Part shown: one piece after another, positions 1 through 27,800 of the stretch
Layout of the letters: each line of letters starts with the position of its first letter
How positions within the stretch are numbered: the first letter of the stretch is position 1
NCBI GenBank assembly: GCA_903813345.2
Contig: CAIIXF020000001.1
Location: forward strand, 434,001 to 498,000
DNA from: Owenia fusiformis
Taxonomy: Eukaryota
Length of the DNA stretch: 64,000 bases
Direction of reading: 5' to 3'
Program-made: the position numbers and the translations under genes
The notes under the pieces: generated by a model
What the model was told of the DNA's origin: nothing
Seen by the model: the letters and a program-made list of their open reading frames with translations, nothing else
The model's database searches: none

Positions 1-1
1 G

Positions 2-2348
2 GAATATTCAGTATTTATATTTCTAGCGCTCAATATGGTATCATTTCTCTTTATTGCATCTTCTTATATATCAATGTTCATCGTTGCCAAGCGGACCCAA
101 GGCGCCGTGCGAAGCCAGGAGGTAAAGAATGATACTAAGTTAGCGAGGAGGATGACGTTGATTGTTATGACGGACTTCTGCTGTTGGGTACCCATCATAT
201 TACTGGGCATTATCTCCTTGATGGGGTTCAACATTCACTCCCAGGTACGTATTATTCTAAAAACTAATTGAATGTCGTTCATATTATCACTCATAGAAAA
301 TTAATAAAATAAGTATTTATGTTGGGAATGCATTTATGTCACAACTTTCGCCTGGGAGACCATACATTTCTACCTCATTATGTTTTCAGATATACAATCC
401 TGTGTGGATGTAATAGAGTTTATTTAATTATGGGATTAAATATGGTTATAATTCCAAGGAACAATATGATTTTTCCCAAGTGAATAAAATCTACATACGA
501 TCCCTCCCAGTAAAACCTTTCTTCCATTTCATAATCTTTACAGATATACACCCTTTTATATGACTGCATTTTTTCTTTCCCTATCATTGCTTTCAGAAAA
601 ATTCCTGCCTGGCTACATCATTCTCCCTCATTTTGCTTTCAGATATGTTCCTCGTTGACTATATCGTTCTCCCTCATTTTGCTTTCAGTTATGTTCCTGG
701 CTGGCTATATCTTCTTCCTCATTTTGATTTCAGATATACGCCTGCCTGGCTATATCATTCTCCCTCATTTTGCTTTCAGATATATTCCTGGTTGGCTATA
801 TCGTTCTCCCTCATTTTAATTTCAGATATACGCCTGCGTGGCTATATCGTTCTCCCTCATTTTGCTTTCAGATATATTCCTGGCTTGTTATATCATTCTC
901 CTTCATTTTGCTTTCAGATATATTCCTGGGTGGCTATATCATTCTCCATCATTTTGCTTTCAGATATATTCCTGCGTGGCTATATCGTTCTCCCTCATTT
1001 TGCTTTCAGATATGGTCCTGGTTGGCTATATCGTTCTCCCTCATTTTGCTTTCAGATATATTCCTGGCTGGCTATATCATGCTCCTTCATTTTGCTTTCA
1101 GATATATTCCTGGGTGGCTATATCATTCTCAATCATTTTGCTTTCAGATATATTCCTGCGTGGCTATATCGTTCTCTCTCATTTTGCTTTCAGATATGGT
1201 CCTGGTTGGCTATATCGTTCTCCCTCATTTTGCTTTCAGATATATTCCTGGCTGGCTATATCATTCTCCTTCATTTTGCTTTCAGATATATTCCTGGGTG
1301 ACTATATCGTTCTCCCTCATTTTGCTTTCAGATATGGTCCTGGCTGGCTATAGCGTTATCCCTCATTTTGATTTCAGATATGTTCCTGGTTGGCATCCCT
1401 CATTTTGCTTTCAGATATATTCCTGGTTGGGAATATCGTTCGCCCTCATTTTGTGTTAATATATATTCCTGGTTGACTATTTTATTCTCCCTCATTTTGC
1501 TTTAAGATATGTTCCTTGTTGGCTATATTTTTCTCCCTCATTTTGCTTTCAGATATACGCCTGGGTGGCTGTATTCGTTCTCCCTCTAAATTCAGCGCTG
1601 AACCCTGTAATATACACGATCTCAACAGCTCCGTTTCTCAAGCGTGCTCGTCTCTTAAGAAGATCATTCATGACTAAGGACACCAGTAGTACAGGTGAGA
1701 AGAGAAAGATGGCAGTATTTATTTGTATAGTTATACCTTGAAATTCCATCTTCTGTCACCCAGTCACGACCCCAGGGTCCCAAATGGGGAAGATACTTCA
1801 CATTTATCAATTGCAACAAGTATGACATTCGGTTCATCGGTGGGTTCGACCGCCCTGGAAAGGGGAGGCTCTTAGAAGTGTACTTTTGTAAAGATGGTTC
1901 TCATAAAATCTCAAGGCATAATAAATCGCGAAGACCCATTATGCATTTGTGTTACCTTGTTTATCATTTACAAACATCCTCCGACACAGAGGTCCGACAT
2001 CATCAATTGCTGGTGAATTGTATTCTTACTCATTGGCTCGGAATATGTGGTACAGATTTTGTATTGAGAATATGTGTTGAGAAAAGTAAAATACTAAGAC
2101 ATGATTTCATTGCAGCAGCTGATGCATCGTCCCACCCCGGAAGTGGCTTCCGGTTTAAAAGTTCCCTGCATCATACGTCAGTTTCACGTGACCACAGTAG
2201 CAGACCAAAGTTCAGGAGAGACTACGTGGCGCTGAAACAGCACCCAGGGGGGTCGCAACACAACACGAGTGTGGGGGAGGGCAGTATCAAAAGGGGCACA
2301 ACACGACTGGCCAATGAATCAACGGGAAACACTGAAATATATGACTGA
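2..2348 (+). CDS. Rhodopsin-class GPCR, LGR/GRL101/relaxin-receptor-like, 3' part (TM5-TM7 and tail). Exons <2-244, 1553-1694, 2116-2348
   Basis: The first exon reads EYSVFIFLALNMVSFLFIASSYISMF...KLARRMTLIVMTDFCCWVPIILLG (LGR-type TM6 TDFxCWxP) and ends CAG|GTACGT at 244. The next exon follows tttcag (1552) and reads IYAWVAVFVLPLNSALNPVIYTIST (TM7 LPLNSALNP), ending ACAG|GTGAG at 1694. A phase-1 join to tgcag|CAG (2116) continues in frame to TGA at 2346-2348. The last exon is less certain. Confidence 0.85.
570..1590 (+). repeat. 46-bp minisatellite (~21 units) built from the GPCR 3' splice junction
   Basis: The unit is roughly cattttgctttcAG-ATATATTCCTGGCTGGCTATATCRTTCTCCCT. AGs fall at 596, 642, 688, 733, 779, 825, 871 ... 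1377, 1414, 1506 and 1552. The last unit is the real exon start. Confidence 0.95.
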
Positions 2349-2622
2349 AGATGTAGACAATCATCTTGATTATGTATTCATTGACAATCTGAAGTTTATG
2401 TAGAAAAAGTTCAGTTGTGAGATATTAAGAATTGTACAAATACTGAATATCATTGAAATGCATTGAAATGTAGTAACATTAATCCGTGTCCTTCAATTTA
2501 ATGTTCTAATCAATTATGTCCGTATATACTGTATACATGTTTTTGCAGTAACTTTAATTTTAATCAAGATTTTTTTATCAAGAACAAAATAATCGTTTGC
2601 CAATATTTTAACATTCCTATTT

Positions 2623-3450
2623 CACTCCCCTCCATAAGTTTGGCAACCTTAGCTCCCCCATTGAACTAACTGTAAAGCCTCTTTACGTTTGAATTTTTAT
2701 TTACTTAATCTGCGATGAAATAACTTATAATATCGATGGAAACGTAACTTGACTTTATTTGCAATACTTAACTTGTGATGAAATTACTTATAATATTGAA
2801 GGAAACATTACTTGACTTTATATCCAATACCTCCAAATTTTCTCGTTTTTCCCTCAATTACAATAGGTCAAAAATTGATGATAAATGTGTGGGTTCGGGG
2901 CAAATCAGAAATCAGGATATCTTTTCAGTAAAAGATTCAGCAAAAATATTTTTTAGAAAATTGAATTGTCTAACTTTGTACACTAAGTGTGTAGTTTACT
3001 TGATGAATACTTAAGTTACAGAGCTTCAAAGCCTACTATTTCAATGGGAGAAGTTTTTTGAAAAACAATTTTGACTTTAAAGACCTATAACTTTGTTGAA
3101 CCTGAAGAAACGTATCATTTTTTTTAGCAAATTCAATTGCCTACCTTAATTGTATTTTTTGCAAGGGCTCGGGTGGATAGATATTCTGTCATATGACTTG
3201 CGGCAAACCTACCATTTCCCATTGGTTAACATGGGAATGTCAATTTTCAAAAATTTATCATAGATTTTGGACCTATTCTAATTGAGGAAAAAATTGAGAA
3301 AATTTGGAGGTATTGGAAATAAAGTCAAGTAATGTTTCAAGTAATAAGTATTTTCCTCACAAGTTATTTAAATGAAAATTCAAACGTAAAGAGGCTTTAA
3401 CACGTAGTTCAATGGGGGAGCTTAGGTTGCCAGACTTGTAGAGGGGAGTG
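2623..3450. mobile_element. MITE (Tc1/mariner-type). A right-end fragment of the same family lies at ~26720-27218 and a short relative at ~11763-11954
   Basis: TIRs cactcccctccataagtttggcaaccttagctcccccattgaacta and tagttcaatgggggagcttaggttgccagacttgtagaggggagtg, with TA on the right. Confidence 0.8.
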
Positions 3451-6330
3451 TAAAACCTTTATTTCTTGATTATCATGAATAAAAAGATCATTTTTATGAG
3501 TACCACAGGCAGGTTTTTGTCGAATACTTTGATATACTGTAGAATAGTATCCAAAGGGACCTTGGCAAGCAGTTAGAAAAGGCAGAAATCCTAATTTCAG
3601 AATTTTGGGTACGCAGGGCACATCGCATTTACGTCACACTATTCAATATAGGAGTTTCTAAATAGCTTTAAAATCTTGCTCATTCTCGCTTTTTCATGTG
3701 ATTTTAAGTGATTTGCACATCTCTAATGATTTACTTTGCTTTATTTTTGATAGCATATTTGAATTCAGTGACAAGTTTTCTCCATAATAGCTTTGCTTTA
3801 CACAGTTATGCCATGTTGAATCATTTTTCACGACATCATTGGTGCAATGCTAAAATTCATTAAAACCTTGGCTCATTTGGATCACAACCAACATTTTCAT
3901 GTTTGATCACAATATGTACATTGAGAGGGTCATCCGATAGTATGCCATTCGAGTTTCAGGCAGATTCAACCATTTAGAAACTATACAATCTGCTTTTGAT
4001 GTATACATGTACATAGAGGTTATTTTCTGGGAGGGATTCAATATGGGTTTTATTCAGAGGGACAATATGATATTTCCCGAGGGCCCAGGGTGCCTATGCC
4101 TATGAAAGCAAGCCTATATGTTTAATAGGCTTTCAATCTTCATACTTCTTACGTTTCAAAATCTATATTTCCCGGGAGGTGAATTTTCGTGAGCGGGTTT
4201 CGGAGGTGAATACGATTTTCGTGAGCGTGATTAAGTGGGCCAATATGATTTTTTTCAATATCAAAAATATTCCCGGGTAGTTTCATGGGATAAATAGAGG
4301 TTATTTAATGGGAGGGATGGAATATGAATTTTATTTCAAGGGAAATATGATATTGACCGAGGGCGACATATTTCTGGTTGAAGACAGAAAGATGTGATGA
4401 GTATCAGAATGGTTTATTGAATGTAGGCTTGTATTTATGAAATACATTAATTAAAAGCTATTGATTCAAAATAAAATTTTAAAAATATATAAGGCCGGAT
4501 TATCTAAGTTCAAGAATGTGCAGTTCAAATGTTGATGTCATTGTTTGTGCCCACTGTCCTCCCGATTTTTCAAAATCAAATATAACTCGTATTTGAATTA
4601 TTGCAAGGTAAACTGAGCCAAATGTTGAAAGAGTAATTTTGTTTTCGCAAAGTTCTAGCCTGAATATAAGATCGTCATATTATTGATTTCCAATATAGGT
4701 GTGTTTATGCGTATAAACCCTGCCATAATGCACCATTAATCACGAACATATATAGGACTTATTGTTAAGTTACATCGCCCTGTGTACAACTGTATTGGTG
4801 ATAGTTGTATACATTGCCAGGAAGATAAGCCGATTTTGATACAATTAACAATGGAAGAATTTACCGACTCTACATCAACTAGTAAATAACTTAAATCCTC
4901 AATAGGGTTTACTACAATTCCGTAAAGGTATACGTGCACTAGAGGATATTCAAAGCCAATGTTAATGGACATGAACTACGACATTTTAAACAAAAACAAG
5001 TCATAAATAGACGTTTTGTTGTCTGTTGAGTGTATATACAGGCTCAGGTAAGTGACTTTTACACATAGTTGTAGAATGCTAATATAAAGATTGTACAATA
5101 TACATTTTGTATGATGAAAACTAAATTCTATTTCCAGTTACATAAATATACTGTAGGCCAGTTTTACAGCTCGATTCTGCGGCTTTCTGCCTTGTCATAC
5201 CTTGTAACTATGACTATCATAAGATAATATTGTATATACATAAAAAATAACATAGTATCACTATGTTAGTCTCAGCTTGTAATTAATATATTTGACTTTT
5301 TGAATATTATCTATGGTTATCATCTGAAAGAATTAATACACTTACTAATAAAATCGCCTAGTGACACCAATTGAAAACTGGTTATGCTATTCTTCGTCAT
5401 TCTATTTTCTATTTGCCTAAAGTGATGTTATTATCCAAATAATCTTATAATGTCAACGCCATGATTACTCAAAATGTCAACTTTATCATGATTTTAAGCC
5501 TTATAGTTTACCAATAATGAACTATAACGACATTTCTCACACAAATGATATCAGTGTGGTTATAATGTTTGACAAAATCAGTTCTTTTTCAGTTTCCTAT
5601 TTTTCAATAGACATGGAATGGTTTCATTTTATATAAAAATTAGTCGTTCCATGTACTGAGTTACTCCATAAGATTGTATATATGTACATACGTGATTACA
5701 AGTTGTATCGGATCAATAGACATGGTTAAGTCTTCATTTACTCTATTAATTATTGAACGTTGGAATGAATGCTTGAAGTAATTCATTAAAGTCTTTCCAG
5801 ATAATGAAATAGTAATTTGGGAAAAATGTCATTATCAGAGTATAGTTTTATTGCAAAAACATTAGTTCAAGTATACGCTTACACTTCCTAACAAGAGTAC
5901 AGCGCATGTCTTGGACATATACTGTTGTATTATTTGCACTACGGATCTAACATGAGTTATACATGGATAAGTCCTAGATTTTCTTGTATTTCAATTAAAC
6001 GGGAAATGTCACTTTTCATTAATCAACAATAAAATTATTACTGCATATAATAGATGCAAAACAATTCCAATTCCGGAATGCTTTATTTCCTGTTATCATG
6101 ACATTGCTTGTTGAGTGTACTAACAGTTAGAATAACTTCTTTGACAAATCGAAATTTCGTCACTAAGAGTGAAGAACCACAAACTGCAATACTAATTGAC
6201 ATAATTGACTAGTAATTACGTAACGTCATATGTTTTCAGAGAACACTCATACTTACATATATCACACACACCACAATAAGAGGGACTTTACACAGAACAA
6301 TCTGTTCGGATCTATTAAATCCCTGCAAAG

Positions 6331-9300
6331 ATGGGTCTAGGATGTGGATCGAAAACAGCGAAGGGGTTCCTATTCGTCTTCAACATATTATTCTTCGTGA
6401 GCATTATTTCTGTCTATTTCGATATATATATATGGGTATCACTGGTGATACATTCGAAAATGGCATCACATTTATAAATACATATTTATTTAGAAATGTT
6501 TCATGTAATGTAGACAGTATATCCACAGAGGTATTCCTGATTCTTGACATTCAATTAGTTTTAACGCTAAATTCTGTATAATTAGCTATAGAATTTAGAT
6601 ACATGCGTATAACGACATTTTGATCTTAGGATTTGTCTTTCTGGTTTAAGGAAATTATATATTTGAATTTGCAGCTTTTGGGTGCTACAGCTCTGGGACT
6701 TGGTATCTTTGTCCTTGTTGACAAGGCTCAGCTGACCTATCTCACTAAGCTTGGAGGAGTAAACCAGGTATTTAGACTGTTTTTGATGATTAATTTATCT
6801 GCTTAAAAACAATATTGCATTGATCATCTCAATACATGAAATAAAAATATATTTTACTTCTGAAAAAATATTGTTTCACTTTTCAAAAGAGCAAAACAAC
6901 CGTGTCATACTTTTGAAATAAAAAACAACATGGTTTTTCATTTCAGAAAATATCATAATCAATATTCAATTACAATTCAAAATATAGTATATATTTTAGA
7001 TGACCCATATATGTAGAAAAGAGTGTTCGATTTATATGCTATGAATAGTTCGAATAAGTGTTAATACGATCTTTGTAATACTAATGATGTGGTGCAATCC
7101 ATGTAATAATGAGTTAACTGTCCACATATTTATTATGGGTTTACTACATGTTCTAAATCAACCCTCATATATTACGATTTTATTAAATGTTTTGAACCAG
7201 CTTTCGTGCACAGCGATTTAAATTCATGTTTTGTTCCACAGGTGGATGTTCCTGGATTACTCGAAACCTCCGCCTATGTTCTTATCGCTGGTGGGGGTCT
7301 GGTGTTCATCATTGGATTCCTGGGCTGTTGTGGCGCATGGAAAGAAGTTAGAGTTTTCCTCATAGTGGTAAGTTACTCAATACTTTTTGAATTCAGAAAA
7401 AGCAATATGGCCTGTCAACAGGAACACACCAGAGCCACAGAGATAATTTCTACTCTAGATTTTCCAAACCGATTTCCAATATCACTATAATCGAGTATTG
7501 TTTTTCCAGTATGCTATCATGGTGTTGCTGATTCTCCTGGCCGAGATAGGAGCTGGGGTAGTTGCCTTTTTATTCAGGGATAAAGTAAGTGAACTTAATA
7601 CACTGCCTTCCATTTGTTTTGCAATTGCAACTTGATGTTTTTATTGGATAGCATATCCAAACATGTTAATGTTTGAATCTAACCTTAATGACAATAGATA
7701 TTAATGGCAAATTGTAATACTATGTAACCTGTCGTTATACTTCAATTTGCATTTTAGGCGATAACAGAGTTGAAATCCTTCCTCAATGAGACCATCGTAT
7801 ACAAATACGAGGGGCAATTGACAACATCTGAACCGTTCTCTCTTGCCTGGGATCTTGCACACGTGACGGTAATGTTTTCCTTATAATGATATAATAATGA
7901 TAATCATAATAATCATTCATCTAATTTTTCATTTGTTTTGAATAATCATTCATATATTTCTTTATTTTTTTGAATAATCATTCATCTATTTCTTATTTTG
8001 TTTTGAATATCAATTATCAATTTCTTCATTTGTTTTGAACAATCATTCATCTATTTCTTATTTTGTTTTGAATATCAATTATCCATTTCTTCATTTGTTT
8101 TGAATAATCATTCATTTATTTCTACGTTTGTTTTGAGTAGTGACTCATCTATTTCTTCATTTGTTTTGAATAATCATTTATCAATTTCTTCATTCCTTTC
8201 AGTTTGACTGCTGCGGGATTAACAACTCTACAGATTTCGATGTTGCTTCGGCATGGAACAGATCATATACATTGACTACGAATAACATCTCTAGCACTGT
8301 AAACATGGTGATCCCACCCTCTTGTTGTCGGTTTACCGACAAATCATTATACCCCAGCAATATCGGCTCGTTGACATTCGTCAATGACACATGTCCCATT
8401 GCACCAACAACATCCAATTCATGGCTAAACACGGTAGGAACCCTAACGTCTATTTTTCATAAAAATGTAAATGTACAAAAATAATATACAAGGCCGAGAA
8501 TTAAACCATAACATTGTGATATATTTTGATTATATCCTTCCAGGGATGTTATCAAACCATTTATGACTTCGTCCTGCAGAATGCCTACATAATAATTGGC
8601 ATAATATACAAGGCCGTGAATCAAACCATAACATCGTGATATATTCTGATTATATCCTTCCAGGGATGTTATCAAACCATTTATGACTTCGTCCTGCAGA
8701 ATGCCTACATAATTATTGGCATTGGGATAGGAATAGGTGTTGTGGAGGTAAGTTCTATTTACATAATAATTGGCACTGGGATAGGAATAGGTGTTGTGGA
8801 GGTAAGTTATATTTACATAAGTATTGGCATTGGGATAGGAATAGGTGTTGTGGAGGTAAGTTCTATTTACATAATAATTGGCATTGGGATAGGAATAGGT
8901 GTTGTGGAGGTTAGTTCTATTTACATAGTTATTGGCACTGGGATAGGAATAGGTGTTGTGGAGGTAAGTTATATTTACATAATTATTGGCATTGGGATAG
9001 GAATAGGTGTTGTGGAGGTAAGTTCTATTCACATAATTATTGGCATTGGGATAGGAATAGGTGTTGTGGAGGTAAGTTCTATTTACATAATAATTGGCAC
9101 TGGGATAGGAATAGGTGTTGTGGAGGTAAGTTATATTTACATAATTATTGGCATTGGGATAGGAATAGGTGTTGTGGAGGTAAGTTATATTTACATAATA
9201 ATTGGCACTGGGATAGGAATAGGTGTTGTGGAGGTAAGTTATATTTACATAATTATTGGCATTGGGATAGGAATAGGTGTTGTGGAGGTAAGTTATATTT

Positions 9301-10833
9301 ACATAATTATTGGCATTGGGATAGGAATAGGTGTTGTGGAGGTAAGTTCTATTTACATAATTATTGGCATTGGGATAGGAATAGGTGTTATGGAGGTAAG
9401 TTCTATTTACATAATTATTGGCATTGGGATAGGAATAGGTGTTATGGAGGTAAGTTCTATTTACATAATTATTGGCATTGGGATGGGAATAGGTCTTGTG
9501 GAGGTAAGTTCTATTTACATAATTATTGGCATTGGGATAGGAATAGGTGTTGTGGAGGTAAGTTCTATTTACATAATTATTGGCATTGGGATAGGAATAG
9601 GTGTTGTGGAGGTAAGTTCTATTTACATAATTATTGGCATTGGGATAGGTATCGGTGTTGTGGAGGTAAGTTCTATTTACATAATTAGAGAGATTTCGCA
9701 CCTAGTGAAAGTACAACTTATAACGTATACTTATACTTATAGGTAAACGTACAAGGTGTTTCATAATGTGGGCATTTCGTCAGGAGAGATCTTCTCGGAC
9801 TGTAATAAATACAGGTCAAAGGGATGCCATTTGTACTTTCTTGAATTGTAGCATGTTTAGTTGATCCAAATGTGTTTGTCTAGAATAAAATAGGCTCGTA
9901 TATAGTACATTTGTTATAGACCCATCTCTTCTCAAATTGACTTTTTGGAGATGCTTGTTATGAAACACCCTGTATGTCATTTGTTGAGCTACTGAATGGG
10001 TCGTCTCCGGGAATTGCTAGAACCTACTGGTTTGATTCGTGTTTCAAATTGATGGTTAAAGTATTTGATTGGATACTGTTCCCACTCAGCCAATTAATTA
10101 AAAAAATGCTTGCGGTCAATTGTTCCACACACATGTAGGCAAATCTTTATACGGAGATCCAACTGTATACGTTATCATCTACGTAAATATACCGTTTTGT
10201 AAGTTCATTGAACTTATACTGATCATGAAAACATTGTAATAATCAACTTGTTTATGTAATGACTCACTTTAAAGAATCATGACTCACTTTAAAGGATCGT
10301 GTTTATAATACACTACAACTACAAGGACACGGAAGCAAGCATTTTATTATAATGTGCATAATCTACACGTGCAGATGACAGTGCATTCACAGGCTCTAGT
10401 TGATGGAGCTTTTCTATAACGGGAATAGTTATGTTCCATTAAGTACAATTTAAAATTGATTTTAGTAAATAAAATAGTTCGACATGACCCTTTAAACTAT
10501 ACGTATACGTATAAGTTGTACTTTCACTTATGTGCGAAATCTCTCTAATATTGGCATTGGGATAGGAATAGGTGTTGTGGAGGTAAGTTCTATTTTATTT
10601 TGACGAATAATTTAATATTTTAGTTGACGTAAACTTAGTCCTATTAGACATTCAAATAAAGATGTTGATGAATTGAGCAATCTTTACTTGTTCTCTTGAC
10701 TGAAATCATTTCATGTTTTATGCACTACTGGCTTGCTTGCTTGCAGATATCAGTTGTATTCGCTGCTTGTTATTTATCGAAAGCTATTCACAATTCAGCA
10801 GAATTTGAAGTTACAAAAGTTACCAACTTTTGA
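6331..10833 (+). CDS. Tetraspanin (6-Cys large loop). Coding exons 6331-6396, 6675-6767, 7242-7367, 7510-7584, 7758-7868, 8203-8433, 8664-8747, then last exon A 10747-10833 (~290 aa)
   Basis: MGLGCGSKTAKGFLFVFNILFF/LLGATALGLGIF (TM1), GFLGCCGAWKE, LLAEIGAGVVAF (TM3), FDCCG, PPSCC, GCYQTI, and TM4 YIIIGIGIGIGVVE/ISVVFAACYL. All introns are GT-AG phase 0 and all exon lengths are multiples of 3. Confidence 0.95.
7905..8195 (+). repeat. ~33-bp intronic tandem repeat (~8-9 units) abutting the acceptor at 8202
   Basis: The unit is roughly aataatcattcatctatttcttcatttgttttg and fills most of the intron. Confidence 0.85.
8482..8721 (+). repeat. 120-bp direct duplication containing the tetraspanin exon-7 acceptor
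   Basis: tatatccttccag|GGATGTTATCAAACCATTTATGACTTCGTCCTGCAGAATGCCTACAT occurs with the AG at both 8543 and 8663. Confidence 0.95.
8706..10595 (+). repeat. 54-bp minisatellite of the tetraspanin exon-7 donor: 18 contiguous units, plus one unit split by a MITE
   Basis: The unit is TACATAATTATTGGCATTGGGATAGGAATAGGTGTTGTGGAG|gtaagttctatt. Donors recur every 54 nt from 8747 to 9665, with another at 10582. Confidence 0.95.
9687..10547. mobile_element. Non-autonomous TIR element in the last unit of the donor array, with a nested Tc1/mariner-type MITE at ~9752-9972
   Basis: Outer TIRs tagagagatttcgcacctagtgaaagtacaactta and taagttgtactttcacttatgtgcgaaatctctcta. Inner TIRs ta-caaggtgtttcataa and ttatgaaacaccctg-ta. 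Confidence 0.85.
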
Positions 10834-11107
10834 GTTACATAATGAGGGTAGGGATTTATAACATAGGCATGGTTCAAACCTGAACGATTGACAAAATACC
10901 ATTGGAAATGTCACACGCCACTTTATACTTCTTAATAGTTAGATATTCTTTAAATACCTTCTGCACCATTCACTTAATTAGCCATAAGGATCTATTTTGT
11001 AAAATTATACAATTCTAGACAACTCAAAATATCTTAACTTGTATTTTAGGATAATACATCTCTTCTCAATTTATCAGCTTTTGCACATTCCTTTACCCTC
11101 ATTCTAG

Positions 11108-11218
11108 TTTGTTGGAGTCATATCAGCATTGTGCCTTGCTCATGCTATTAAAAAGGATAAAGACGAAGATTCAGTTACGGATCTCAGGAAGGCTGACCGT
11201 AGAGCGAGGCGACGGTAA
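11108..11218 (+). CDS. Tetraspanin candidate last exon B: FVGVISALCLAHAIKKDKDEDSVTDLRKADRRARRR*
   Basis: A pyrimidine tract plus ttctag acceptor at 11107. It is phase 0, homologous to the TM4 C-half (xxGxxxAxCLAxAI), and ends TAA at 11216-11218. Confidence 0.75.
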   Translation, partial: FVGVISALCLAHAIKKDKDEDSVTDLRKADRRARRR

Positions 11219-11936
11219 TTTTGAGTGAAACATGGATTGCTAAAATGTTGAAAAACGTGTATTAATAACAATGATTCATTAATACCCTGCTTTTGATTGC
11301 ATGCACTAACCACAGTAATCACGTGATCACATTGGTCTCCACGGATTGGCTGCATGTGGTCACGTGATTCTAAAAGTGTTACACACATCAAATGTAAATG
11401 GGAGTTTAAACTTGCATATAAAATCGAAACGCCAACCTATACGTATGACAAATCGCCCATACAAATGCATCGCTTAAATATTTTCCGTTGACGTTTAGGT
11501 TGTGAGGAACATTGCAAGCTTAAACTCCCTGTATGTATACTTTTAAAACATGCTTATAACCAAAATCACATTGTTTTGCTGCTTAACAATAATTGGCTTT
11601 ATCCCGTGGTGTTTGTCTGCATCATCCTCCAAATAACACGTCATGTCAGTCTTCTTTGTTTCTATTGCATCAAGTATGGTTTGATCAAGTGATGTAGCAA
11701 CACAATGCTCAAATTTACGGACGTCTCTCAGTTCAACGTTCCAACAATGTGGACGTTTTATACTCTCTTCTATAAGTTTGGCAGTCAGAAGTTCATCCTA
11801 GACTTTGGATACACCAATCAATGTTTGGCTATTTGAAAAAGTCACATATGTTTCCAAACTTTAGATCAGGAACAATATTAAGATTCAGACAATGAGAGAT
11901 TTGATATGCTAATCAATGGAAACTTCTGGTTGCCAA

Positions 11937-12655
11937 ACTTATGGAGGGAAGTGTATATCACTACATGTACCAATAGTTTGATTCGTATATCACATCACAA
12001 ATCTTATGGAGGGAAGTGTATGTCACTACATGTACCAATAGTTTGATTCGCATATCACATCACAAATCTTATGGAGGGAAGTGTATATCACTACATGTAC
12101 AAATAGTTTGATTCGTATATCACATCACAAATTTTATGGAGGGAAGTGTATGTCACTACATGTACCAATAGTTTGATTCGTATATCACATCACAAATCTT
12201 ATGGAGGGAAGTGTATGTCACTACATGTACCAATAGTTTGATTCGTATATCACATCACAAATCTTATGGAGGGAAGTGTATGTCACTACATGTACAAATA
12301 GTTTGATTCGTATATCACATCACAAATCTTATGGAGGGAAGTGTATATCACTACATGTACCAATAGTTTGATTCGTATATCACATCACAAATCTTATGGA
12401 GGGAAGTGTATGTCACTACATGTACCAATAGTTTGATTCGTATATCACATCACAAATCTTATGGAGGGAAGTGTATATCACTACATGTACCAATAGTTTG
12501 ATTCGTATATCACATCACAAATCTTATGGAGGGAAGTGTATATCACTACATGTACCAATAGTTTGATTCGTATATCACATAACAAATCTTATGGAGGGAA
12601 GTGTATATCACTACATGTACCAATAGTTTGATTCGTATATCACATCACAAATCTT
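11937..12655 (+). repeat. 65-bp tandem repeat (11 units) starting at a MITE right TIR
   Basis: atggagggaagtgta recurs at 11941, 12006, 12071 ... 12591. The first unit is the TIR end of the MITE at ~11763-11954. Confidence 0.95.
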
Positions 12656-12880
12656 GATCTAATCTCTTCTAATAAAGAGATTTCGTTATAATTATAAGTG
12701 AATCGAAGTTTGTCGTTTCACAAAAATACTCGTATAAGTATAGAAACGTATATTTCATATGATTCCGTACCAATAATAATTTATTATCGAGATAAGTACT
12801 CGTACACTTATAAACAACAAACAATGGCTCCGTGGATGGATAGAGCTGCGCGACAAGTGATGACAAAGTACACACACATT

Positions 12881-13415
12881 CACTGGTGATCCACTCGATT
12901 ACGCTGGTTACCGAAACGATTCGTTTTGGTAACAAAATGTCGGAACATCGAAGGTACGATTTTTCTTTTTTCCTTATTTCACACGTTGTAGGCAGAATTC
13001 CCACGACATTTTTAACACAAACGTGTATCAGTATCATATGTTTAAGAAAATGTACATATTTGCGAACAAATAGTTCAGAAGACAATAGAATCGTAGATTT
13101 AATTCCTCACTTAAGTTACATAAACGGTTTTTCGAAAAACAGTTAAGATCTGCACTTTTAACCCAAACCGTTTATGCAACTTACGTGAGGAATTAAGTCG
13201 ACGATTCAGTTGTCTTCTTAGCTATTTTTTCGCAAACATGTACATTTTCTATAACATATGATGCTGATACACGTTTGTGAGAAAAAACGTCGTTGGGATT
13301 CTGCCTACAACGCGTGAAATAGGGAAAAAAGAAAAATCGTACCTTCGACGTTCCGACATGTTGTTACCAAAACGAACCGTTTCGGTAACCAGCGTAATCG
13401 AGCGGATCACCAGTG
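12881..13415. mobile_element. Foldback element with ~250-bp inverted arms and CACTG...CAGTG termini (CMC/Transib-like)
   Basis: cactggtgatccactcgattacgctggttaccgaaac... mirrors ...gtttcggtaaccagcgtaatcgagcggatcaccagtg. The flanks are acatt and acctt, a possible 5-bp TSD with one mismatch. Confidence 0.85.
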
Positions 13416-13601
13416 ACCTTAAGCTTATAGACTATGTTATAAACATAAAATACGCTATAAGTGCGGTTGCGTAATCAATATATTGCTTTAAACCATTCAG
13501 TGTCAATGACTGTTGACGGATCAGTGTGAGATTCTGTAAATTATCTAGAAATATAGGGTGGTCCAAAAGTTGACAACGTATGAACCTCTTCTCTGTTGCA
13601 G

Positions 13602-13670
13602 ATAGTGGGAATCGTCGCAGCATGTTGTTTAGCAAGAGCAATCAAACAAAAAGAAAACGACGTCGTATAA
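13602..13670 (+). CDS. Tetraspanin candidate last exon C: IVGIVAACCLARAIKQKENDVV*
   Basis: Acceptor ctcttctctgttgcag at 13601. It is phase 0 with a canonical TM4 end and juxtamembrane Cys. TAA at 13668-13670 and AATAAA at 13876. Confidence 0.8.
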   Translation: MVGIVAACCLARAIKQKENDVV

Positions 13671-17197: not shown

Positions 17198-18427
17198 TTA
17201 CGGACTTGTTTCAGTACATGGTTGTAACATCTGCTGAAAACTTTTGGCAAAAAATTTATCTCGAAGTTCTTCTCTGGATGGAGTGAAGAGATGTTCGTCA
17301 AGGGGGGTGCTCGCATATGTTTCAAGTTCCACCATGTTAATAGCCCCATTTCTAATCTCATTCTCCAATCCGATTATAAAGATGTCAACGTCCCTCTTAT
17401 TTTTCAGATGGTTTGCAATTCGAGTAGCTACACTTGCCCTGGCCGCCCTCCTTGTGAAACCATCAGTAAACACGACGAGGGCATTTTTGAATCGTTTCCT
17501 ATCTCCATTTGCCTTCCTAAAGTATGTTTCATTCACAGCTTTGAACATACGATCGGTGCGTGATTTTCGGTCTCTTGGTTCTTCGAAAAAGGTATTAATA
17601 GTTGTCTTGATAGCTTCGTTGTCATAGTGATCATTCAAATAGAAACCATGCAAGGCATGTTTGTTGTACATGAGCATGCCGACTTGAGAGTCCTCTTTAG
17701 ATATCGCCAACTCATCAATTAGATTATTCAAGAATTGGCGGACAGCATCTTGGTCTTCAAGAGAGACACTGAAACTTGTGTCACACGCGAATACGATATC
17801 TCTACCAATGGATACACAATCTAAAAAACAAATATAAGTTATCCTACACCCGGAACAAAAGATGAATTATTCATCTAGTTCGATATACTACTTCAATATA
17901 CATATTTCATAAGGGTCGCTAGTCATTCAATATTTATTAATAGCATTCAAGATTACCGCGTGCACCACCATCACCGCCACCTGGTAGGTCTGGTAAACCG
18001 CCATCTGGTAGACCGCCATCAGGTAGACCGCCATCAGGTAGACCGCCATCTGGTAGACCGCCATCTGGAATAGCTGGAACAACCGTCCCATCAAGCTCAT
18101 TTGTAGTACTAGTTGTAGTTTGTTCTTCGACTCTAACCGTAGTCATATCACTTATATAAGAGGACGTTTCTATTGTCGACTCAGTTGTGCCAGATGAGGC
18201 TTCGGTGGCCTCATTTGTGCCAGATGAGGCTTCGGTGGCCTCAGTTGTGCCAGATGAAGCTTCGGTGGCCTCATTTGTGCCAGATGAGGCTTCGGTGGCC
18301 TCAGTTGTGCCAGATGAGGTTTCGGTGGCATCATTTGTGCCAGATGAAGTTTCAGTAGTCGTCTCGGTTGAGGGTGATTCTGTAGACGTCGAAGTTACGC
18401 CAGCAGGAACAACAGCATTATCAATTT
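17198..18427 (-). CDS. Second module: Ser/Thr/Glu-rich mucin-like and (PDGGL)n linker exon 18427-17957, then VWA exon 17820-17198. The upstream exon is unresolved
   Basis: attttag acceptor, (TEASSGTxEA)n and PDGGLPDGGL, donor G|gtaatc. The next exon reads DCVSIGRDIVFACDTSFS (MIDAS DxSxS) ... LVVFTDG ... QPCTETSP*. Both introns are phase 1. Confidence 0.85.
17990..18355 (-). repeat. Coding tandem repeats: 15-bp PDGGL units (~5) and 30-bp TEASSGTxEA units (~6)
   Basis: gaccgccatc(a/t)ggta repeats at 17990-18068 and ttgtgccagatgaggcttcggtggcctca repeats at 18180-18355. Confidence 0.9.
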
Positions 18428-20783
18428 CTAAAATAATCGCAATCACTGCATAATCACCATTGCTTGCAATTCATTTGAAAAATGATGATGTATTATACAT
18501 AATTATACATTACAGGGTGGTCTAATATACAATAAATGACCCAAGAGGACAATACTATTTGGTTATGATGAGCACAAAGTATCAGACAATACGTCGTAAC
18601 AGAAACATAAGACGTAAAGAAAAAATGCTGGTTTGGATTTCAGATGTCATTGTTGCCCCTTGGTTTGATTATCTACTAGGTTGTAGTCCGCGGTTGTGCG
18701 TTTGGTTCCTACAAAAACAAACATATCGGGGTTTAATTTTAGATATTGGTTATAAAGATTGTTTTGATGTTCATGTAGGTATAGACATTTGAGGGCAGAC
18801 AGTTCAACATATTTTTCAAGTATTAAGATCATATCACGCTCACCTCATTTATTTCAAAACGGTTAGATGCCATTTTGACTATTGGCTAATCAGTTTCACA
18901 GCGTACGCGCATTTCCTCAATATTCGTCGCCAAAAGTCCGATGCCATTCACTGCTACTCGTGCACTCGACCTTGAGTATATTATCATCATTTACTACACA
19001 TGGAAACTGAGGTCAGCTATAGTATGCTATAATCTCGGCATTTTATCCAATATTGTTCCGTTTTAATATCTTGTACAAGCTTTACTGTGCTTGGTGTTCT
19101 ATACTAAGACTATTGAGTTAGATGATTTGAGTTGCCGAAATGCAATGCAGTTTTTACAGTGTGGGTGACATATTTCATAAAAGTTGAATATCATCAATTC
19201 ACGGTTTAATGTTAAGAAAAAATGATAATAATCATAATACGGAATTTTTAGTATTGCTAAAGTCCAAGGTTCAATAAAACAGCCAATGAAGACCTACCTT
19301 GGAATGCAAAATGTTCATATTGTAAGCTCATTGTTTCAGCCATCCAATCTTTATCTGCCACTTTATGTCTTTGGGAGTTTAATAACGTTATATATGACTC
19401 TTTGCTTATCCCAAGCGATCTCTTGTCAGGATTTGGAATCATATATCAGTGACACGATCAGAGGATTGACAGGTAGACAATGATACAATAGCATATTGTC
19501 AATATGTAATGGCGTGTTAATCCAAGGGACATGCAAAAAATTTGTAATCACGAAATTGACTGACACTTCAGATACTATTTTTTAATAACAAAAAAAAACA
19601 TTTTTGTTTTTATTTTGAGTCTGCACACGATGAAATATGTCAATAGTTTTCATTGAATCTTACTTTATTCTATTATTTGACGGATTAGATGTTTGAATTT
19701 ATGTATAATTATCATGCCTGATTGTTTATAATTTTTACTCATCATAGAAACACGTACAATGTTTAAGTACCATGCCAAACAAGTCATAGCAACAATTACA
19801 ATGTTTTTAGCACCACCCCAAATAAATCAAGATTGAATTTTTTAATTTTAAAAAATTCATTCTCCATTAAACAGGATTCTCAATTCTCAAGGAAGGTTCT
19901 TTGATTTTATTCTTAGCTTAACCTAACCCATTTTATTCTGATTTACTTTTCACTATTAAGTGTAGGGAACCAGTTAGCACATTTGTATGTATAACTCACT
20001 CAGTTAATCAAATTAATTTGATCTATGTTCATTTCAAAACGCAAGCCTGAAATTAAAATTAAAAATTAAAATGTTTTAATACCTCCCCAAACAAATCAAA
20101 GCAATGTTTTTAGCACCACCACAAATGCATTATTTCAAAAATAGCCAGAGGACTTTTACAAACTGTCGAAGTTATCAATAAACAGTTTGAGCCAAAATAG
20201 GAAATACCTCAAGTTAACGATAAATATCATATGCTGTATGTTGAATCATGCCATGTGTTATATATAATTTTAAAGATTAAATACTTCCTAGCAATAAAGG
20301 ATTTAAGCCCTGGACTCAGTGCATTGTTTGTCCGCAAACCTTTGCATGACCGCGATGATGGCAGGGATGTCATGAGCGACCAAAAAAGTATTTTATGTGG
20401 ATTTCAAAATTGAGGAAAATTGAGGGAAATTTGAACTTTGGCAACTACATTTATATGATGATACATTTTTGAACTAACTATCAATTGTGTATTATTCTTA
20501 AATAAGTCTCTAATGATTCAGTCAAGCATATTGAGTGCAGCTGAGAAAAGCTGGGAAATTCGGGGATTTTAATTTTTTGTTTTATTTTTGGTCGTCATGA
20601 CACTTCTGGTGTCTATATAAGCCTCTAACTCCACAGGAAAACAAAGATGTTTCAATTGGATGGAGCGATATTGTAATAAAATGATTTATGTTTAAAATAA
20701 TATATAATACATGGCATGGTTTTATGAGTCATGTATCTTTAAACGTGGGTATTTTTTGGCCCGATATATGTGTACATGTATAT

Positions 20784-21345
20784 CGGGTGTCTCAAAAATG
20801 TATCCAGAAGTATATCAACAGCACAGATAAACCAATCAATATTTTCAGACATATTTTGCATGGTCATATAGTCAAAACATGAAAGTTTTCTCCCCAATAT
20901 ACCATTTTTATTTCAGTCGTGCATTTTTTATGCTTTAACCCTTTACCTTTTATACCACATAATCAATATAACCTCATATTCACTATTCACCAGATTTGAA
21001 GGCCCATAGCTTTTTTCTCTGTGGCTATTTGAAGGACCCTTTTTATGCTAAACCCAAGCTAAGAGACCTAGAACAATTTAAGACCAGCATCCGAACAGAA
21101 ATCAAATCATTCACCAGAAATATCAAATGTGATGAACAATGTAATAGTAAGGATGCAGACTGTCATCGAAATATGAAGTCACATTGATTATGTGGTGTAA
21201 AAAGTAAAGGGTTACAGTATCACAAAGGCAAAACTGAATTAAAAACTATGAACAGAGGAAAAACGTACATATTTTGACTACAAGACCATGCAAAACATTT
21301 TTCTATGCTGTTGATAGATTTTTGAGTACATTTTTGAGACACCCT
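20784..21345. mobile_element. Mariner-derived MITE with a transposase C-terminal remnant. A tiny MITE abuts it at ~21349-21424
   Basis: TIRs gggtgtctcaaaaatgta and tacatttttgagacaccc. The remnant SFFLCGYLKDPFYAKP resembles mariner DFFLWGYLK. A similar remnant SPSDLNRCDFFFWSYLR lies at ~16580-16700 (-). Confidence 0.75.
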
Positions 21346-21844
21346 ATACAGGGCGTGTCAAAAAACGCAATAAGTAGTTATCTCGTAAAATCACAAAACT
21401 AGTGCGTTTTTTTGATACGCCCCGTATACCTACATATTCATGAAAATCATGAACAATATCTGACTTAGTAATGGAGGGGATGTTGTATTTTTAAATAATT
21501 AATCTGAAATTTAGTCACTTTTGTTCGCTACGCCTTATAATATCTTTAATTTATTTAAAAATCCATATTAGTCAGTAAATCAATGTTAATGTGTTTGTAA
21601 TGTATATTGAAACAGATTTCGATTCTCTTCCTTTTGTAATTTTACAAATTTACATTAAAATGGTTGTATACAAACGCCAAATATTCACTTGCTTTTATTC
21701 ACCAACACTATTACATGCTATATGGTGTAGTCAAATGAATAGGAATATAGTCAAAGCTGCAACAACATTAAGCGTATCGCCTGTATCTTACAAATGCTAA
21801 ATTTAAAGTCCTCCTTTGAATTCGTTATTCAACTGTTGTTGTGT

Positions 21845-24800
21845 TCAGGGAATAGGGACACATGGTTGAAGAAGCTCTCGAAATCTCTGCGCAAATATCT
21901 TGTCAGTCAATTCAATTGCGCTGGGAACTCCGTTTTCGTCCACAGGCTGAATCAAATGATCTGTCACATTATCGCTCACAAGTACTCTCAATTCAGTAGT
22001 ATTGTATCCCTTATTCGGGGTAAATCTATTTAGAAGTGCAACGCTGAATATTTCAAGTCCTCTCTCTTTAAGGTCGGTTGCCTTTTTTCTTGCCTTTAAT
22101 GCATTCCTATAAGGAAATGTTGTACCATCTGAGAAAATAACTAACTGGTTTTTAAAGCCTTCTCTGTCTCCACCATCCGGCTTGAAAAAACTTTCGTCTA
22201 CGGCTCTTAACATCCGGGCTGTTTGGGTTTTCCTAAATCTTTCCAAGGTGAAATGGCTGTTCAGCTGGTCAAGGAGGTCATTGTTGTTACTTGCCGAGTC
22301 CAGGAAGAATCCGGTCAAAGGGTTACTGCTGTACCTCAGGAAACCCATCCTTGTTCCTTCGTCACCAATAGTGAGTTCGGATATCAAGTTTCTAATGAAC
22401 TCCCGGACCACATTGAGATCGTTTTCAGCTATACTTTTACTGTTATCTACAGCTATAACTATGTCAGTACCCTGGACGGAACAATCTGCAAGAACAGTAA
22501 TCAGTCATCTTTGAACTTTCAGATTTTTAAAAAGGAAATACTGACGGGGTAAAATTAATGGTAAGAGCCCCAAAGATAATTGCGATTCCAATAATCGCTC
22601 AAATAATTAACTTTCATGATTCAAATTTAATTCACCGTTTGGTCCGCCGCCACCTCCGTCTGGCCCACCATCAGGTAAGTCCGTCGGTAGTTCGTTTCCG
22701 CCACCGCTGTCATCTTGAGCATCTGAAATGTAAGATCAAAGATATATTTAAATAAATCTAAATAATTACAATTATTGTATTTAGTGCATAGTTGAAATGG
22801 TATACAAGAAGTAAAAAACTATTTCACCCTCTGCAAAGTACTTACAAATGGCGTTTAGGGCATAGTTTCTCATGGTAAGTACAGTTCTTCTCGTAAACGA
22901 TTTATCCGCCATTGAAAACAGAGTTCGTTCAGTGTAATTATTGATGAATGTGGCGGACTCTATTGTTTGCATGCCACGCCCTGCCACAAATGGGATAACT
23001 CCTTCAGCTCTGGACGCATCGTAAATGACTGCCATACAATCTCGCTCTGCATCGACATATTGCTAAATAAAAATCAACATTGAAATGTATTTGGTAGCTA
23101 CGTGAAATGTTTTAAATATAGAGGGTAGCATCAATTTTCGATTTAATTTTAAATATATAAACAATTTTCATTAAGGTCATTTAAAGACATGAGTAATCGG
23201 TTTCTATTTCTGAGACATTCTTCTTTCAATTGACACTTGGAATCTCCTATTACATTCTATATTCAACTATACAAGGATTACACTTACTGGTGAAGCTAGC
23301 TCAACGATGTGTTTTCCTTTGGAAGCCTCTGGAAGTTCAGTTACGGACAATTTCTTGTACAAGCCGTCACCTAATACCTTGACTATCTAGACAAAATATG
23401 AACGTGCATATATTAATGCTTCTTTGAACATTTTTAACCTACCATGATATAAGTATTTTGTTGTAACCTACTATGATATAAGCGATTTATTTGAACCTAC
23501 CATGATATAAGCGGTTAGTTTGAACCTACCATGATATAAGCGGTTAGTTTGAACCTACCATGATATAAGCGGTTAGTTTGAACCTACCATGATATAAGCT
23601 GTTTGTTTTAACTTACCATGACATAAATGTTTTGTTTTAACCTGCCATGATTAATAGTGCCATGGTTCGATGATTTTTGGTGAAAAATGATAATTTATGA
23701 AAGAATGAAGTGTTTCGAGATTGTTTGTGCAGCTAAAGAATGATCTATAGACAGTTAGGCATTTCATGGGTACTTAACTATATTTGGGTTGGTTTGAGTT
23801 TAGGCCAAACTTTTTTCTTGTGAATTCAACATTTCTAGATTTAAATGGTGACATTAATTGGGATCTATAGAATTTAGCCTCCAAAGAGTCGAGCAAATTT
23901 CTTTGTATTGATCACATTATTTTATTGGCAAAAATCATTGGACCAACGACACAACAATTGTTTGCATAATATTTAGCCAAAAGCTGACAAAATTAGTCAG
24001 TTTTCACTGGTTTTCTATCGTTAAACCTCTTAAATCAAAATTATAGATAAATTTTGGCTAATTAGATACCCTTTATGAAATTATTCCCAAGTGTAGCCTA
24101 AAGAATAAAATTCAGCCATTTATTTAGTTCGAATATTTTGACATCTCTCAGAAAAATTGGGCTGACCAATTCTAACATCTAAAAATGTTACAATATATCC
24201 CTAATCAATCAAAATATGTCAAAAATATCAATTTTTTCATGACAGTTTGCAGGTCTCCCAACAATGACATCTTAGGCAACTTTCCGATGGTCAATGCCAA
24301 AACAGTGCCTAATAATCGTCAAAACTCGTAATGTTGACGTCAAAAATCTTTATTGACCATCGTTTAATAAACATTTTACGTCATATATCCGCCGTTTTAG
24401 TAATTTCTAATGTTGCTAATTGAGACAATTCCAAAAACAATTGCTCTAATGCAATCCATTTGGGATAATATTGAAATCTTTGGATTTATTTAAAAAACGA
24501 GGATTTTCGGAACTTATCACCATATACCCCTTTCAAATCAAAAAATTGCATATATCTCCAATTGAGAAAAGAAGATATGACCGCTTTTTCCGCCTTCTAT
24601 CCGAATTTTGAATATTTTTTGATAAAGGGTAGGTATCGATATGGTGAACTGAATTCAACAATGTTTTTTTCTTAAACCAATTATTGAAAACGTTCTGTAA
24701 AAAACACTGTCCTTTATGTATTGTTGACTATATATATTTCAAATTATAATGTTATACCATCCAACAGATGACCATTAAATTGACGATGTGCAAAATTTTC

Positions 24801-27800
24801 AGAATGTTTTGATAACTGGTTTAAGAGAAACGTGTGTTCAAAGATTTCACCATATCGATACCACTCTTTTCAAATTCAAGACCACCATCACAAAAATTCA
24901 AATATTTGAAGTGAACCGAATCATTTGGGGATACTTTTTTGTTAATTTATATATCCACAAGATAAACAAAATGAAATATAAAATCTGTACATTTTGACTG
25001 GTGACTGCACTGATAAATCTTGATTTCACCATCATCCCAATTTTAAATTAAGATTTCTTAAATTGAGGTTTTTTGTCTTCTACCTTTTTACTAGCACCCT
25101 CTGTGCTTCTACCATTCCACTAGCGCCCTCTGTGGAGTTATCCCGTATTGTTTTAACCTACCATGATATAAGCGGTTAGTTTTAACCTACCATGATATAA
25201 GTAGTTTGTTTTATGCCTTGGTCACATTTGCTCCGATTCATCAGCCGGCGCCCGGTCAATTGAGTATTCTGTTCAAAATTGAATATTATTGTGAACAGGA
25301 TGATCAATCTGCTGGGCGCCGGCCGATGAATCGGAACAAATGTGACCCAGGCATAAACCTACCATGATGTAAGCGGTTAGTTTGAACCTACCATAATATA
25401 AGCGGTTTGTTTTAACCTACAGTACCATAGCAGTTAGTTTTAGCCTATCATGATATAAGCGGTAAGTTTTAAGCTACCATGATATACGCAGTTTGTTTGA
25501 ACCTACCATGATATAAGCGGTTCCCTTCCGCGAGGCACGATAATACTCGAAGTGTGTGATGTTCCCTGTACATGGCAACTTATCAAGCAACAAGTGTGCC
25601 CAATTCCCCCCAACATCCTTATCAGAAAAGCTCTCTACATTATTAGCGGGGAATTTAGAGGTTGGACACTTATCTGAAAATATTATATACTTTATTGAGT
25701 CGAGTGGTATCGATATGGAGAACTTTTTGAACACACGTTTCTCTTAAACCACTCATAAAAAAAGATCTTAATATTTTACACATCGTCAATTTAATGGTCA
25801 TCTTTTGAATGGTAACAATATAATTTGAAAAAGATATAATACTTTCATCTATATTGTTTTAGAAAACACATCAAACACTTCTCTCGTGCTTGGTATCATG
25901 TTTCCAGAGTGAAATGAAACATCTTTCTGAACCTCATTGGAACAAAACGACATAAACACAACATGTTTAGGTCTCTCAATATTGTAACTGTACAAAGGAA
26001 ATTTTGGTTGATTTTAAAAAAGTATCTTGTTAATGAAACAAAAGGTTTATCTTGATTTTTATCTATTTTGGGGGGATTTTGTTTTAATTTTTTGAATACT
26101 TTTTTAAAATCAAACAAAAATTCCTTTGTATAACTATAATATTGAGAGGTCTAAAACTGAAAACATGTTGTATATGCTATTTTGTTCCAACAAGGTTCGG
26201 AAAGACATTTTATTTCGTTCTGAAGAATTGGTAGAAAGGAGCAAAAACAATTGCACTAAAAAAACAAAAAATGTTAACAAAAACAGTTATATAAAATATT
26301 TCTAAAAAATTTTCGCATTAAATTGTTGTCAATCAGTCAACATTACATAAAATACCGTGTTTTTTACAGAATGTTTTCAATTATTGGTGTAAGAGAAACA
26401 CATTGTTGAATTCAGTTCTCCATATCGATACCACTCCTTTATAAATTATATATATCTACATATGTTTTATGGTATAATGAATAAATACTCACAATAAGGT
26501 AGACATTATATATAAGAATTAAAGCCACTCAAAACACCATGATTGTTATTATAGCCATTTTGTTTTTTACAACAGTTGAATAGTTATTTTCAGATTCAGT
26601 GAAAACGATTCGACATTTATTTCTAGTTGTCAGTTCTATTTTCTCTCCCGATGGGCGGATCTGGAAAAACCAACAAGAAGGGGGGGGGGAGCAAACTCCA
26701 GGTCCGATAAGTCAAACAGTTAAACAGTCAAAAAGTTATAGGTCTTAAAAGTTAAAATTATTTTTCAAAAACCTCTCCCATTGAAATAACATAAGAGGCG
26801 AAAAATGATTTTCAAAGATGACTTTGAAGCCCTGTAACTTTAGTATTCAAAGTATACTGAACACTTAGCGTAAAAAAGTTAGACAATTAAATTTTCTATA
26901 TAAAAATATATTTTGGTGGAACTCTTACTGGATAGATATATTGAAATCAATTTTGCCCCAAACCACCATTTCCCATTGGTTTACATGGAAATTACGATTT
27001 TTAAAAATTCATCTTTATTATCACTATTCTATCTATAAATGTAATTGATGAAAAATGGGAACATTTGGGGATATTTGAAATGAAGTCAAGTTACATTTCT
27101 CTTAACAGTAAAAGTATTTTACTCACAGGCTAGGCGAATAAAAATGCAAACATAAAGAGGCTTTAACACGTAGTTCAATGAGGGTAAGCTAAGGTTGCCA
27201 AACTTGTGGAGGGGAGTGTATGTTTAACTATTCGATATCAATGCTATGTCTTTTAATTTAATTTTTTATTTAATGTTCTTTTAACTATTTAGCTTATATT
27301 GTATTCTTACCCAATGTTATCAAAGTGTGATATTTGAAACTTGTTTTGAAGTTTCAAAAAGTGAATTTATGTGAATTTATTTAAAACTAACTTCAAGGGG
27401 TCACATATATCTTTTAATAAACGACAATTTATACTAATGCAGAGCACCCATCCTCACATGTTTTTGACGAAGAAATTAAGAAAATCGGTTCATAAATAAG
27501 CGGGAAATGAACTTATCTATGCATGAAATTCGTTCAGAGAAAAACTGCATTTCAAAATTTTAGTTTTTATAGAAATCGATGGTACAATAATATCTAAAAC
27601 ACTTTTTATCCCATACTTGGACGTGTTACAGGTACATAAAGTCGGTTTGTAAAAACGTATATTTTCATCAGCGGGCAAATATAGCTTTACGTCCCGCTCC
27701 GAGCGGGCAGATATAGTATATCTGCCCGCTACGTCATAATCGCAGTTCGCATATTGGTTAAGAGGAGGAAAAACCCCATGATTCAATTGATGACATACGA

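Follow-up and report, generated by a model that had tools for sequence, protein, structure and literature searches.

Minisatellites whose repeat unit runs across an exon-intron boundary are known from amphioxus as “mirages.” They are described at both boundaries in Adh3 and the globin genes BflGb6 and BflGb9, where splicing is undisturbed and a route to intron gain was proposed (PMC3087553), and they were later extended to troponin C and PGBD5 (PMC3902484). Similar human cases are the 37-bp variable number tandem repeat (VNTR) of F7 intron 7 together with 6-16, CBS intron 13, LAMIN B2, and PDGF, in which the first site only or the first few sites are used (PMC1557585). The earthworm repeats of PMC12783039 are purely intronic and hence not relevant here. 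Among papers listed from mainly openly accessible literature, we found neither a genome-wide count of junction-spanning arrays nor a report from annelids. Here we describe four such arrays, in three genes, within a 64,000-nucleotide (nt) stretch of Owenia fusiformis DNA (contig CAIIXF020000001.1, positions 434,001 to 498,000), referred to below as the window. The contig is 62 Mb long in a genome of 499.5 Mb, and the window begins 0.43 Mb into the contig; the species is an annelid. The Owenia arrays belong to the known kind, i.e., mirages and F7-type VNTRs; what is new is a measured rate and a test against chance.

Like the amphioxus mirages, the Owenia units lie across exon-intron boundaries at 5′ and 3′ ends, most copies keep their GT or AG, and splicing continues in the tetraspanin gene described below; unit sizes also overlap (10 to 160 bp there and 29 to 120 bp here). 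The Owenia arrays differ in their annelid host, in reaching up to 22 copies compared to 3 to 6 in BflGb6, and in being supplied with a frequency (17/898 junctions) and a chance test. As in the F7 repeat, the donor lies within the first monomer and is followed by identical pseudo-donors, and the most upstream site appears to be used. However, the F7 unit includes only 4 nt of exon compared to 16 to 42 nt in Owenia, half of the Owenia cases are acceptors, and scanning was shown by mutation in F7, whereas we infer it in Owenia.

Tandem arrays in the window were detected with Tandem Repeats Finder (TRF), which recovered all four junction arrays (Table 1). The initial annotation, made from the letters alone, had claimed that three host genes carry arrays across genuine splice junctions, and TRF, the register with human RXFP1, the deposited protein P0001, and the RNA joints agree with it. 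Its copy numbers also held up, with 22 acceptors in the 46-bp array of a G protein-coupled receptor (GPCR) gene, 19 donors in the 54-bp array of a tetraspanin gene, and 16 donors in the 29-bp array of a VWA gene, as did the 120-bp acceptor duplication in the tetraspanin gene (two copies). The junction units in the window hold 12 to 63 nt of intron. Both boundary types are duplicated (two donor and two acceptor arrays), and the splice dinucleotide is kept in 21/22 (GPCR), 2/2 (120 bp), 19/19 (54 bp, including the detached 19th copy), and 14/16 (VWA) copies. Because unique intron sequence lies beyond the last copy in all four arrays, the intron is older than the array in each case. Two other arrays of the host genes, at 7908-8194 (33 bp) and 11934-12655 (65 bp, 11.1 copies), lie clear of any junction and are absent from the initial annotation. 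An unrelated 65-bp array of 21.8 copies lies at 62156-63565; no junction was identified for either 65-bp array in the window.

Table 1. Features of the three array-bearing genes (positions within the window; TM, transmembrane segment; MITE, miniature inverted-repeat transposable element)
Feature	Position	Strand	Basis
Exon of relaxin-receptor/LGR-like GPCR, TM5-TM6 region; donor GT at 245	1..244	+	Pfam 7tm_1, E 1.4e-6; human RXFP1 578-655, E 8e-10
46-bp acceptor array, 22 copies (~12 nt intron end + 34 nt exon start)	570..1586	+	TRF; X1 contig 1402-1569
Final coding exon of GPCR, TM7 onward	1553..1741	+	RXFP1 661-689, E 2.3e-7
Tetraspanin exons 6331-6396, 6675-6767, 7242-7367, 7510-7584, 7758-7868, 8203-8433, 8664-8747	6331..8747	+	Pfam PF00335; open frame; RNA joints
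33-bp intronic array without splice site, ending 8 nt before exon 8203	7908..8194	+	TRF; RNA joint 7867>8202
Acceptor duplication, 120-bp unit made of 63 nt of intron and 57 nt of exon	8481..8720	+	TRF; 11, 14, 20 junction reads
54-bp donor array, 18 copies, 42 nt exon end + 12 nt intron; first donor 8748	8706..9687	+	TRF
Inverted-repeat (MITE-like) insertion separating the 19th donor copy	9688..10545	.	Terminal inverted repeats
19th 54-bp donor copy, GT at 10583; unique intron sequence after	10546..10594	+	Sequence comparison
Three candidate tetraspanin last exons, 10747-10833, 11108-11218, 13602-13670	10747..13670	+	Each completes an open protein of 285-299 amino acids
VWA-gene exon after the array-bearing intron	23287..23386	-	P0001 residues 264-296
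29-bp donor array, distal piece, 8 copies	23432..23651	-	TRF
Repeat-derived insertion splitting the 29-bp array	23652..25149	.	Parts match other window sites as inverted repeats
29-bp donor array, middle piece, 2 copies	25150..25213	-	TRF
Short inverted-repeat (MITE-like) insertion within the array	25214..25355	.	Inverted-repeat match
29-bp donor array, proximal piece, 6 copies; first donor GT at 25506	25356..25522	-	TRF
VWA-gene exon, 3′ end seeding the 29-bp unit	25507..25674	-	P0001 residues 208-263

To see which copies are spliced, three raw RNA runs labeled as this species were compared with the stretch 1400-8765 (6 to 12% of each run was read); statements on joints hold among the 15 joint rows listed, with 47 further joint rows and 704 loose-end rows outside the listing. 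All six tetraspanin introns in this stretch appear as GT..AG joints in the three runs. The two 120-bp copies differ at 5 positions and offer acceptors at 8543 and 8663. The 8433->8664 joint was carried by 45 reads in all, with a short-side overhang of up to 73 to 75 nt, which exceeds the 57 duplicated exon bases; a joint to 8544 was absent among the RNA joints listed. A 230-nt intron is removed even though the alternative of 110 nt has an acceptor of equal strength (scores of 10.8 and 11.4). TRF called the 54-bp array at 18.2 copies; reading through its 18 copies keeps the frame and meets no stop, and 18 of the 19 donors match the real one in score. No read in the three runs extended past 8765, i.e., 18 nt beyond the first donor, and RNA depth in the last bin (4.9, 8.0, and 11.9) was lower than the exon-only expectation of ~8, 9, and 16 derived from the previous bin. 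Since donors 2 to 18 are in frame and stop-free, their use would not be hidden by nonsense-mediated decay (NMD); with ~45 reads per junction, it is bounded, indirectly, at roughly 7%. These results show that the RNA uses the exon-proximal acceptor of the 120-bp pair and the first 54-bp donor, and regular splicing is undisturbed at both tetraspanin arrays. By this indirect evidence, only the most upstream 54-bp donor is used, as in the F7 type. Farther downstream, the three candidate last exons resemble one another, each bringing an acceptor in phase 0, the last part of TM4, and its own stop; they may be alternative terminal exons that arose by duplication and encode different cytoplasmic tails.

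For the other two genes, the functional copy was assigned from protein matches. TRF called the GPCR array at 587-1586 (46 bp, 21.9 copies), and its 22 acceptor copies span 596 to 1552. Because the flanking exons match human RXFP1 residues 578-655 and 661-689, the junction 244/1553 is in register, and therefore only the last copy, with its AG at 1551-1552, restores the frame. The two decoys nearest this acceptor are weakened (scores of 4.3 and -10 versus 10.5). RNA depth over the GPCR gene was at most 1.7 in the three runs, too thin to read splicing. On the minus strand, the gene identified by PF00092 has 15 donor copies within 10 mismatches of the first and a degenerate 16th (14 GT, 1 GC, and 1 AT), and its nearest decoys are weakened too. 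P0001, a predicted model rather than a transcript, links 25507 to 23386, which corresponds to the first donor. Edge copies look more diverged, as judged without a tree, at 596, 1460, and 1506 in the GPCR array and at 23645 in the VWA array. The claim of the initial annotation that the exon-proximal copy is the functional one in each array is thus confirmed by RNA for tetraspanin, and it agrees with annotation for VWA and with the inferred register for the GPCR. The extra copies do run into the intron as it described; this cannot be taken as a sign of function, since any other arrangement would break the exon. The VWA intron retains 56 nt of unique sequence (23387-23442, minus strand) between the last donor copy and the acceptor and was probably shortened after the array arose, given that only 1 of 449 dynein introns (see below) is shorter than 105 nt. 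The same gene also has an array within an exon: its low-complexity coding exon at 17940-18470 (minus strand) contains in-frame repeats of 30 bp (Thr/Ser/Glu) and 15 bp (Gly/Pro/Asp).

Within the window, junctions were touched by three of nine arrays (after merging) in 17 introns compared to 0.4 expected (p=0.006), a value biased by the choice of the window for its junction arrays. The test against random placement was performed on 15 dynein heavy-chain genes picked by Pfam AAA_6, blind to repeats, with 3 further listed dynein loci left out. The dynein DNA (640 kb of tiles) was compared with reference dyneins using our own spliced aligner, and 449 introns with good alignment on both sides were kept (547 with a looser filter and 307 with a stricter one). 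One junction array was corrected by hand, the aligner having taken a distal copy. For the null model, arrays within the introns were collapsed, and a single seed of one unit length could fall with equal probability anywhere in these introns or at their edges. An array was present at 17 of 898 dynein junctions (1.9%; 9 donors and 8 acceptors, all inspected), distributed patchily with 0 to 5 per gene. Arrays with units of 20 to 400 bp spanned a junction in 17 of 85 cases compared to 10.8 expected (1.57-fold, p=0.027; within-gene null, 10.1 expected, p=0.012), and the remaining 68 were plain intronic. A comparison with shuffled placement, which the initial annotation had called for genome-wide, yielded an excess in this set, yet one that varied with the settings: in 12 combinations of TRF settings and intron filters, the ratio for units of at least 20 bp ranged from 1.09 to 1.64, with p<0.05 in 3. 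Permissive TRF settings brought it down to 1.09 to 1.21, and the strictest intron set to 1.33 (p about 0.2). For units of at least 30 bp, a cut chosen after seeing the data, the 12 ratios ranged from 1.25 to 1.85, with p<0.05 in 7. Removing interspersed repeats left the dynein ratio unchanged. About two-thirds of the dynein junction arrays are therefore expected by chance, and the excess is modest and unstable.

Arrays in general are denser toward contig ends. Counting units of at least 20 bp in at least 3 copies over 66 stretches (818 kb; loci on contigs without known length were excluded, and kinase and tetraspanin loci entered this count only), we found 16.2 arrays per 100 kb at less than 4 Mb from a contig end, then 14.5, 9.4, and, beyond 13 Mb, 6.5, a drop of about 2.5-fold; the window has 9 arrays in 64 kb. 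Among the dynein regions (15), arrays took up less of the sequence the farther a region lay from the contig end (Spearman -0.61, p=0.016). The two most distal dynein genes carry 8 junction arrays in 122 junctions compared to 9 in 776 elsewhere (post hoc, p=0.0008). Four or more arrays in the 34 junctions of the window have a probability of 0.18 at the distal-gene rate and 0.004 at the overall rate, the window having been singled out beforehand.

Signatures of selection were sought in the 21 junction arrays. There is no frame bias, the unit being a multiple of 3 in 8 of them. In 13 of 21 arrays, the decoy closest to the real site roughly equals it in strength, so the choice of splice site must be positional. 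A weakening of the nearest decoys, seen in the GPCR and VWA arrays, was rejected as a general rule, as most of the 17 dynein arrays lack it. A first decoy count relative to the functional unit (5/256 versus 421/8635) was dropped because copies are not independent. As far as tested, decoy GT/AG sites are shown to be neither purged nor kept.

Taken together, these arrays are probably mirage minisatellites. Short tandem duplications would be frequent in this repeat-rich region at a chromosome end, and the arrays would be their neutral by-product, tolerated because splice-site choice is positional. The anatomy of the arrays shows that a 29- to 120-bp stretch straddling an existing junction by chance is first duplicated; slippage or unequal exchange would then expand and homogenize the array, as in any minisatellite. 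The spliceosome would keep the copy adjoining the intact exon while the extra copies leave with the intron, as shown for tetraspanin, annotated for VWA, and suggested by register for the GPCR, with exon definition or first-donor scanning as the likely cause. Removal of the 230-nt rather than the 110-nt intron at the 120-bp pair fits exon definition, and NMD or branch-point differences could contribute. Duplications wholly within exons would be purged, and junction arrays may outlast mid-intron ones somewhat, because their exon copy is under selection and deletions reaching the exon are removed; this could produce a 1.1- to 1.9-fold excess without function. The high rate of tandem duplication with tolerated junction copies, one of the two options in the initial annotation, is thereby largely borne out (6.5 to 16 arrays per 100 kb, ~11 of 17 by chance, and proximal use in RNA). 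Even if neutral, the arrays form a large natural experiment in splice-site choice, with identical sites 29 to 155 nt apart selected by position, and the outcome at the 120-bp pair suggests exon definition in an annelid whose introns are short (median 326 nt). Mirages also move from single-gene anecdotes to a rate, with chance placement explaining most of it, and such arrays may mislead gene prediction and short-read mapping.

Several observations weigh against a purely neutral origin. The excess over random placement was positive in all 12 settings and reached 1.85-fold (p=0.003) for units of at least 30 bp; the exon share of the unit is 0.63 compared to 0.55 expected (p=0.06 to 0.08); and decoy GT/AG sites show 4 changes compared to 8.0 expected (p=0.10). 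The survival bias of junction arrays is argued rather than measured, the enrichment rests on one gene family, and the RNA evidence covers one gene only. In addition, the upstream 8543 acceptor would insert 40 codons including a stop, so its use could be masked by NMD.

These points are shared in part by a functionless mutational bias, which is unlikely but the strongest of the alternatives: duplications would arise preferentially at or near exons owing to higher GC, to nucleosome or recombination bias, or to co-transcriptional lesions. The 17 arrays compared to 10.8 expected, the larger ratio for longer units, the exon share, and the GC content of exon edges (44% versus 33% in introns) are consistent with it. 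However, the ratio falls under permissive TRF settings and in the strictest intron set, and none of 67 arrays with units of 15 to 29 bp lay at a junction compared to 2.3 expected (14 genes). Purely intronic arrays also did not pile up near junctions, with 5 and 5 within 30 nt compared to ~4.5 each, except for 4 within 10 nt of an acceptor compared to ~2.1 expected. If the excess or the conservation of decoys held genome-wide, it would indicate a mutational link between exon edges and duplication. A broader reading of this sort, in which exon-intron junctions would be a preferred amplification substrate (~2% overall and perhaps 6 to 7% near chromosome ends) whose intact decoys form a copy-number-variable reservoir of splice sites, sometimes tuning isoforms, e.g., by in-frame lengthening of TM4, or seeding introns, is doubtful.

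A role as functional modulators, with copy number tuning splicing, NMD, or protein length, appears quite improbable. The best candidate is the 54-bp unit, where TM4 would gain 18 hydrophobic residues, in frame, with every distal donor; the open frame of this array, its 18 strong donors, and the strength of the nearest decoys in 13 of 21 arrays would suit such a role, and use of near pseudo-sites is reported for human 6-16 and CBS (PMC1557585). Nevertheless, no read passes the first 54-bp donor, the depth of the last bin stays below the exon-only expectation, units show no bias toward multiples of 3, and arrays are also found, patchily, in unrelated housekeeping-type dynein genes. The preferential amplification and splicing or NMD tuning offered in the initial annotation are therefore weak at most, the excess of 1.1- to 1.9-fold being unstable.

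Its suggestion that the arrays are substrates for intron gain fares worse. A copy could become a new mini-exon or split an exon, as modeled for amphioxus globins (PMC3087553), and the units do offer a ready GT or AG. Yet all four arrays sit on introns that predate them, each unit has one authentic kind of site only, and no new exon or intron occurs among the RNA joints listed, making intermediates of intron gain very improbable. The Rogers model (cited in PMC3087553) derives introns from tandem duplication of a proto-splice site. The duplicate would there come from exon sequence only and make up the whole intron; tandem duplication likewise supplies repeated splice signals in Owenia, whereas the Owenia units contain pre-existing intron (12 to 63 nt), sit in older introns, and make no new one.

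An assembly artefact, with repeats expanded at exon edges, has nothing in its favor beyond the general risk with repeats and is hardly credible, since copies differ by substitutions, two arrays (54 and 29 bp) are interrupted by transposon-like insertions, and independent contigs of run X1 hold the arrays, in several copies, with raised depth (34.8 and 64.6 on array bins versus ~3 to 17 in single-copy sequence, depth not being copy number), so that the arrays are not peculiar to this assembly. X1 is one contig set, compared with 1400-8765, whose contigs cross introns and are thus DNA-like; one of them, over 1402-1569, spans the last GPCR units and the exon.

Three further features were noted. 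Three matches to the same part of the dynein AAA_6 profile (~56-164) lie within 5 kb at G000:C9:7082562-7087388 (plus strand), which suggests a triplicated exon. At G000:C9:37986009-37994334 (minus strand), a myosin gene is preceded by ~11 exon-like matches in tandem, all to one portion of the myosin head profile (~25-83); they may form a cluster of exons that are duplicated or mutually exclusive. Finally, the window contains at 42370-43530 and 48900-51280 (plus strand) a putative endonuclease/reverse-transcriptase element, recognized by eye and presumably of the long interspersed nuclear element (LINE) type, which is split by a ~5-kb insertion with inverted ends.

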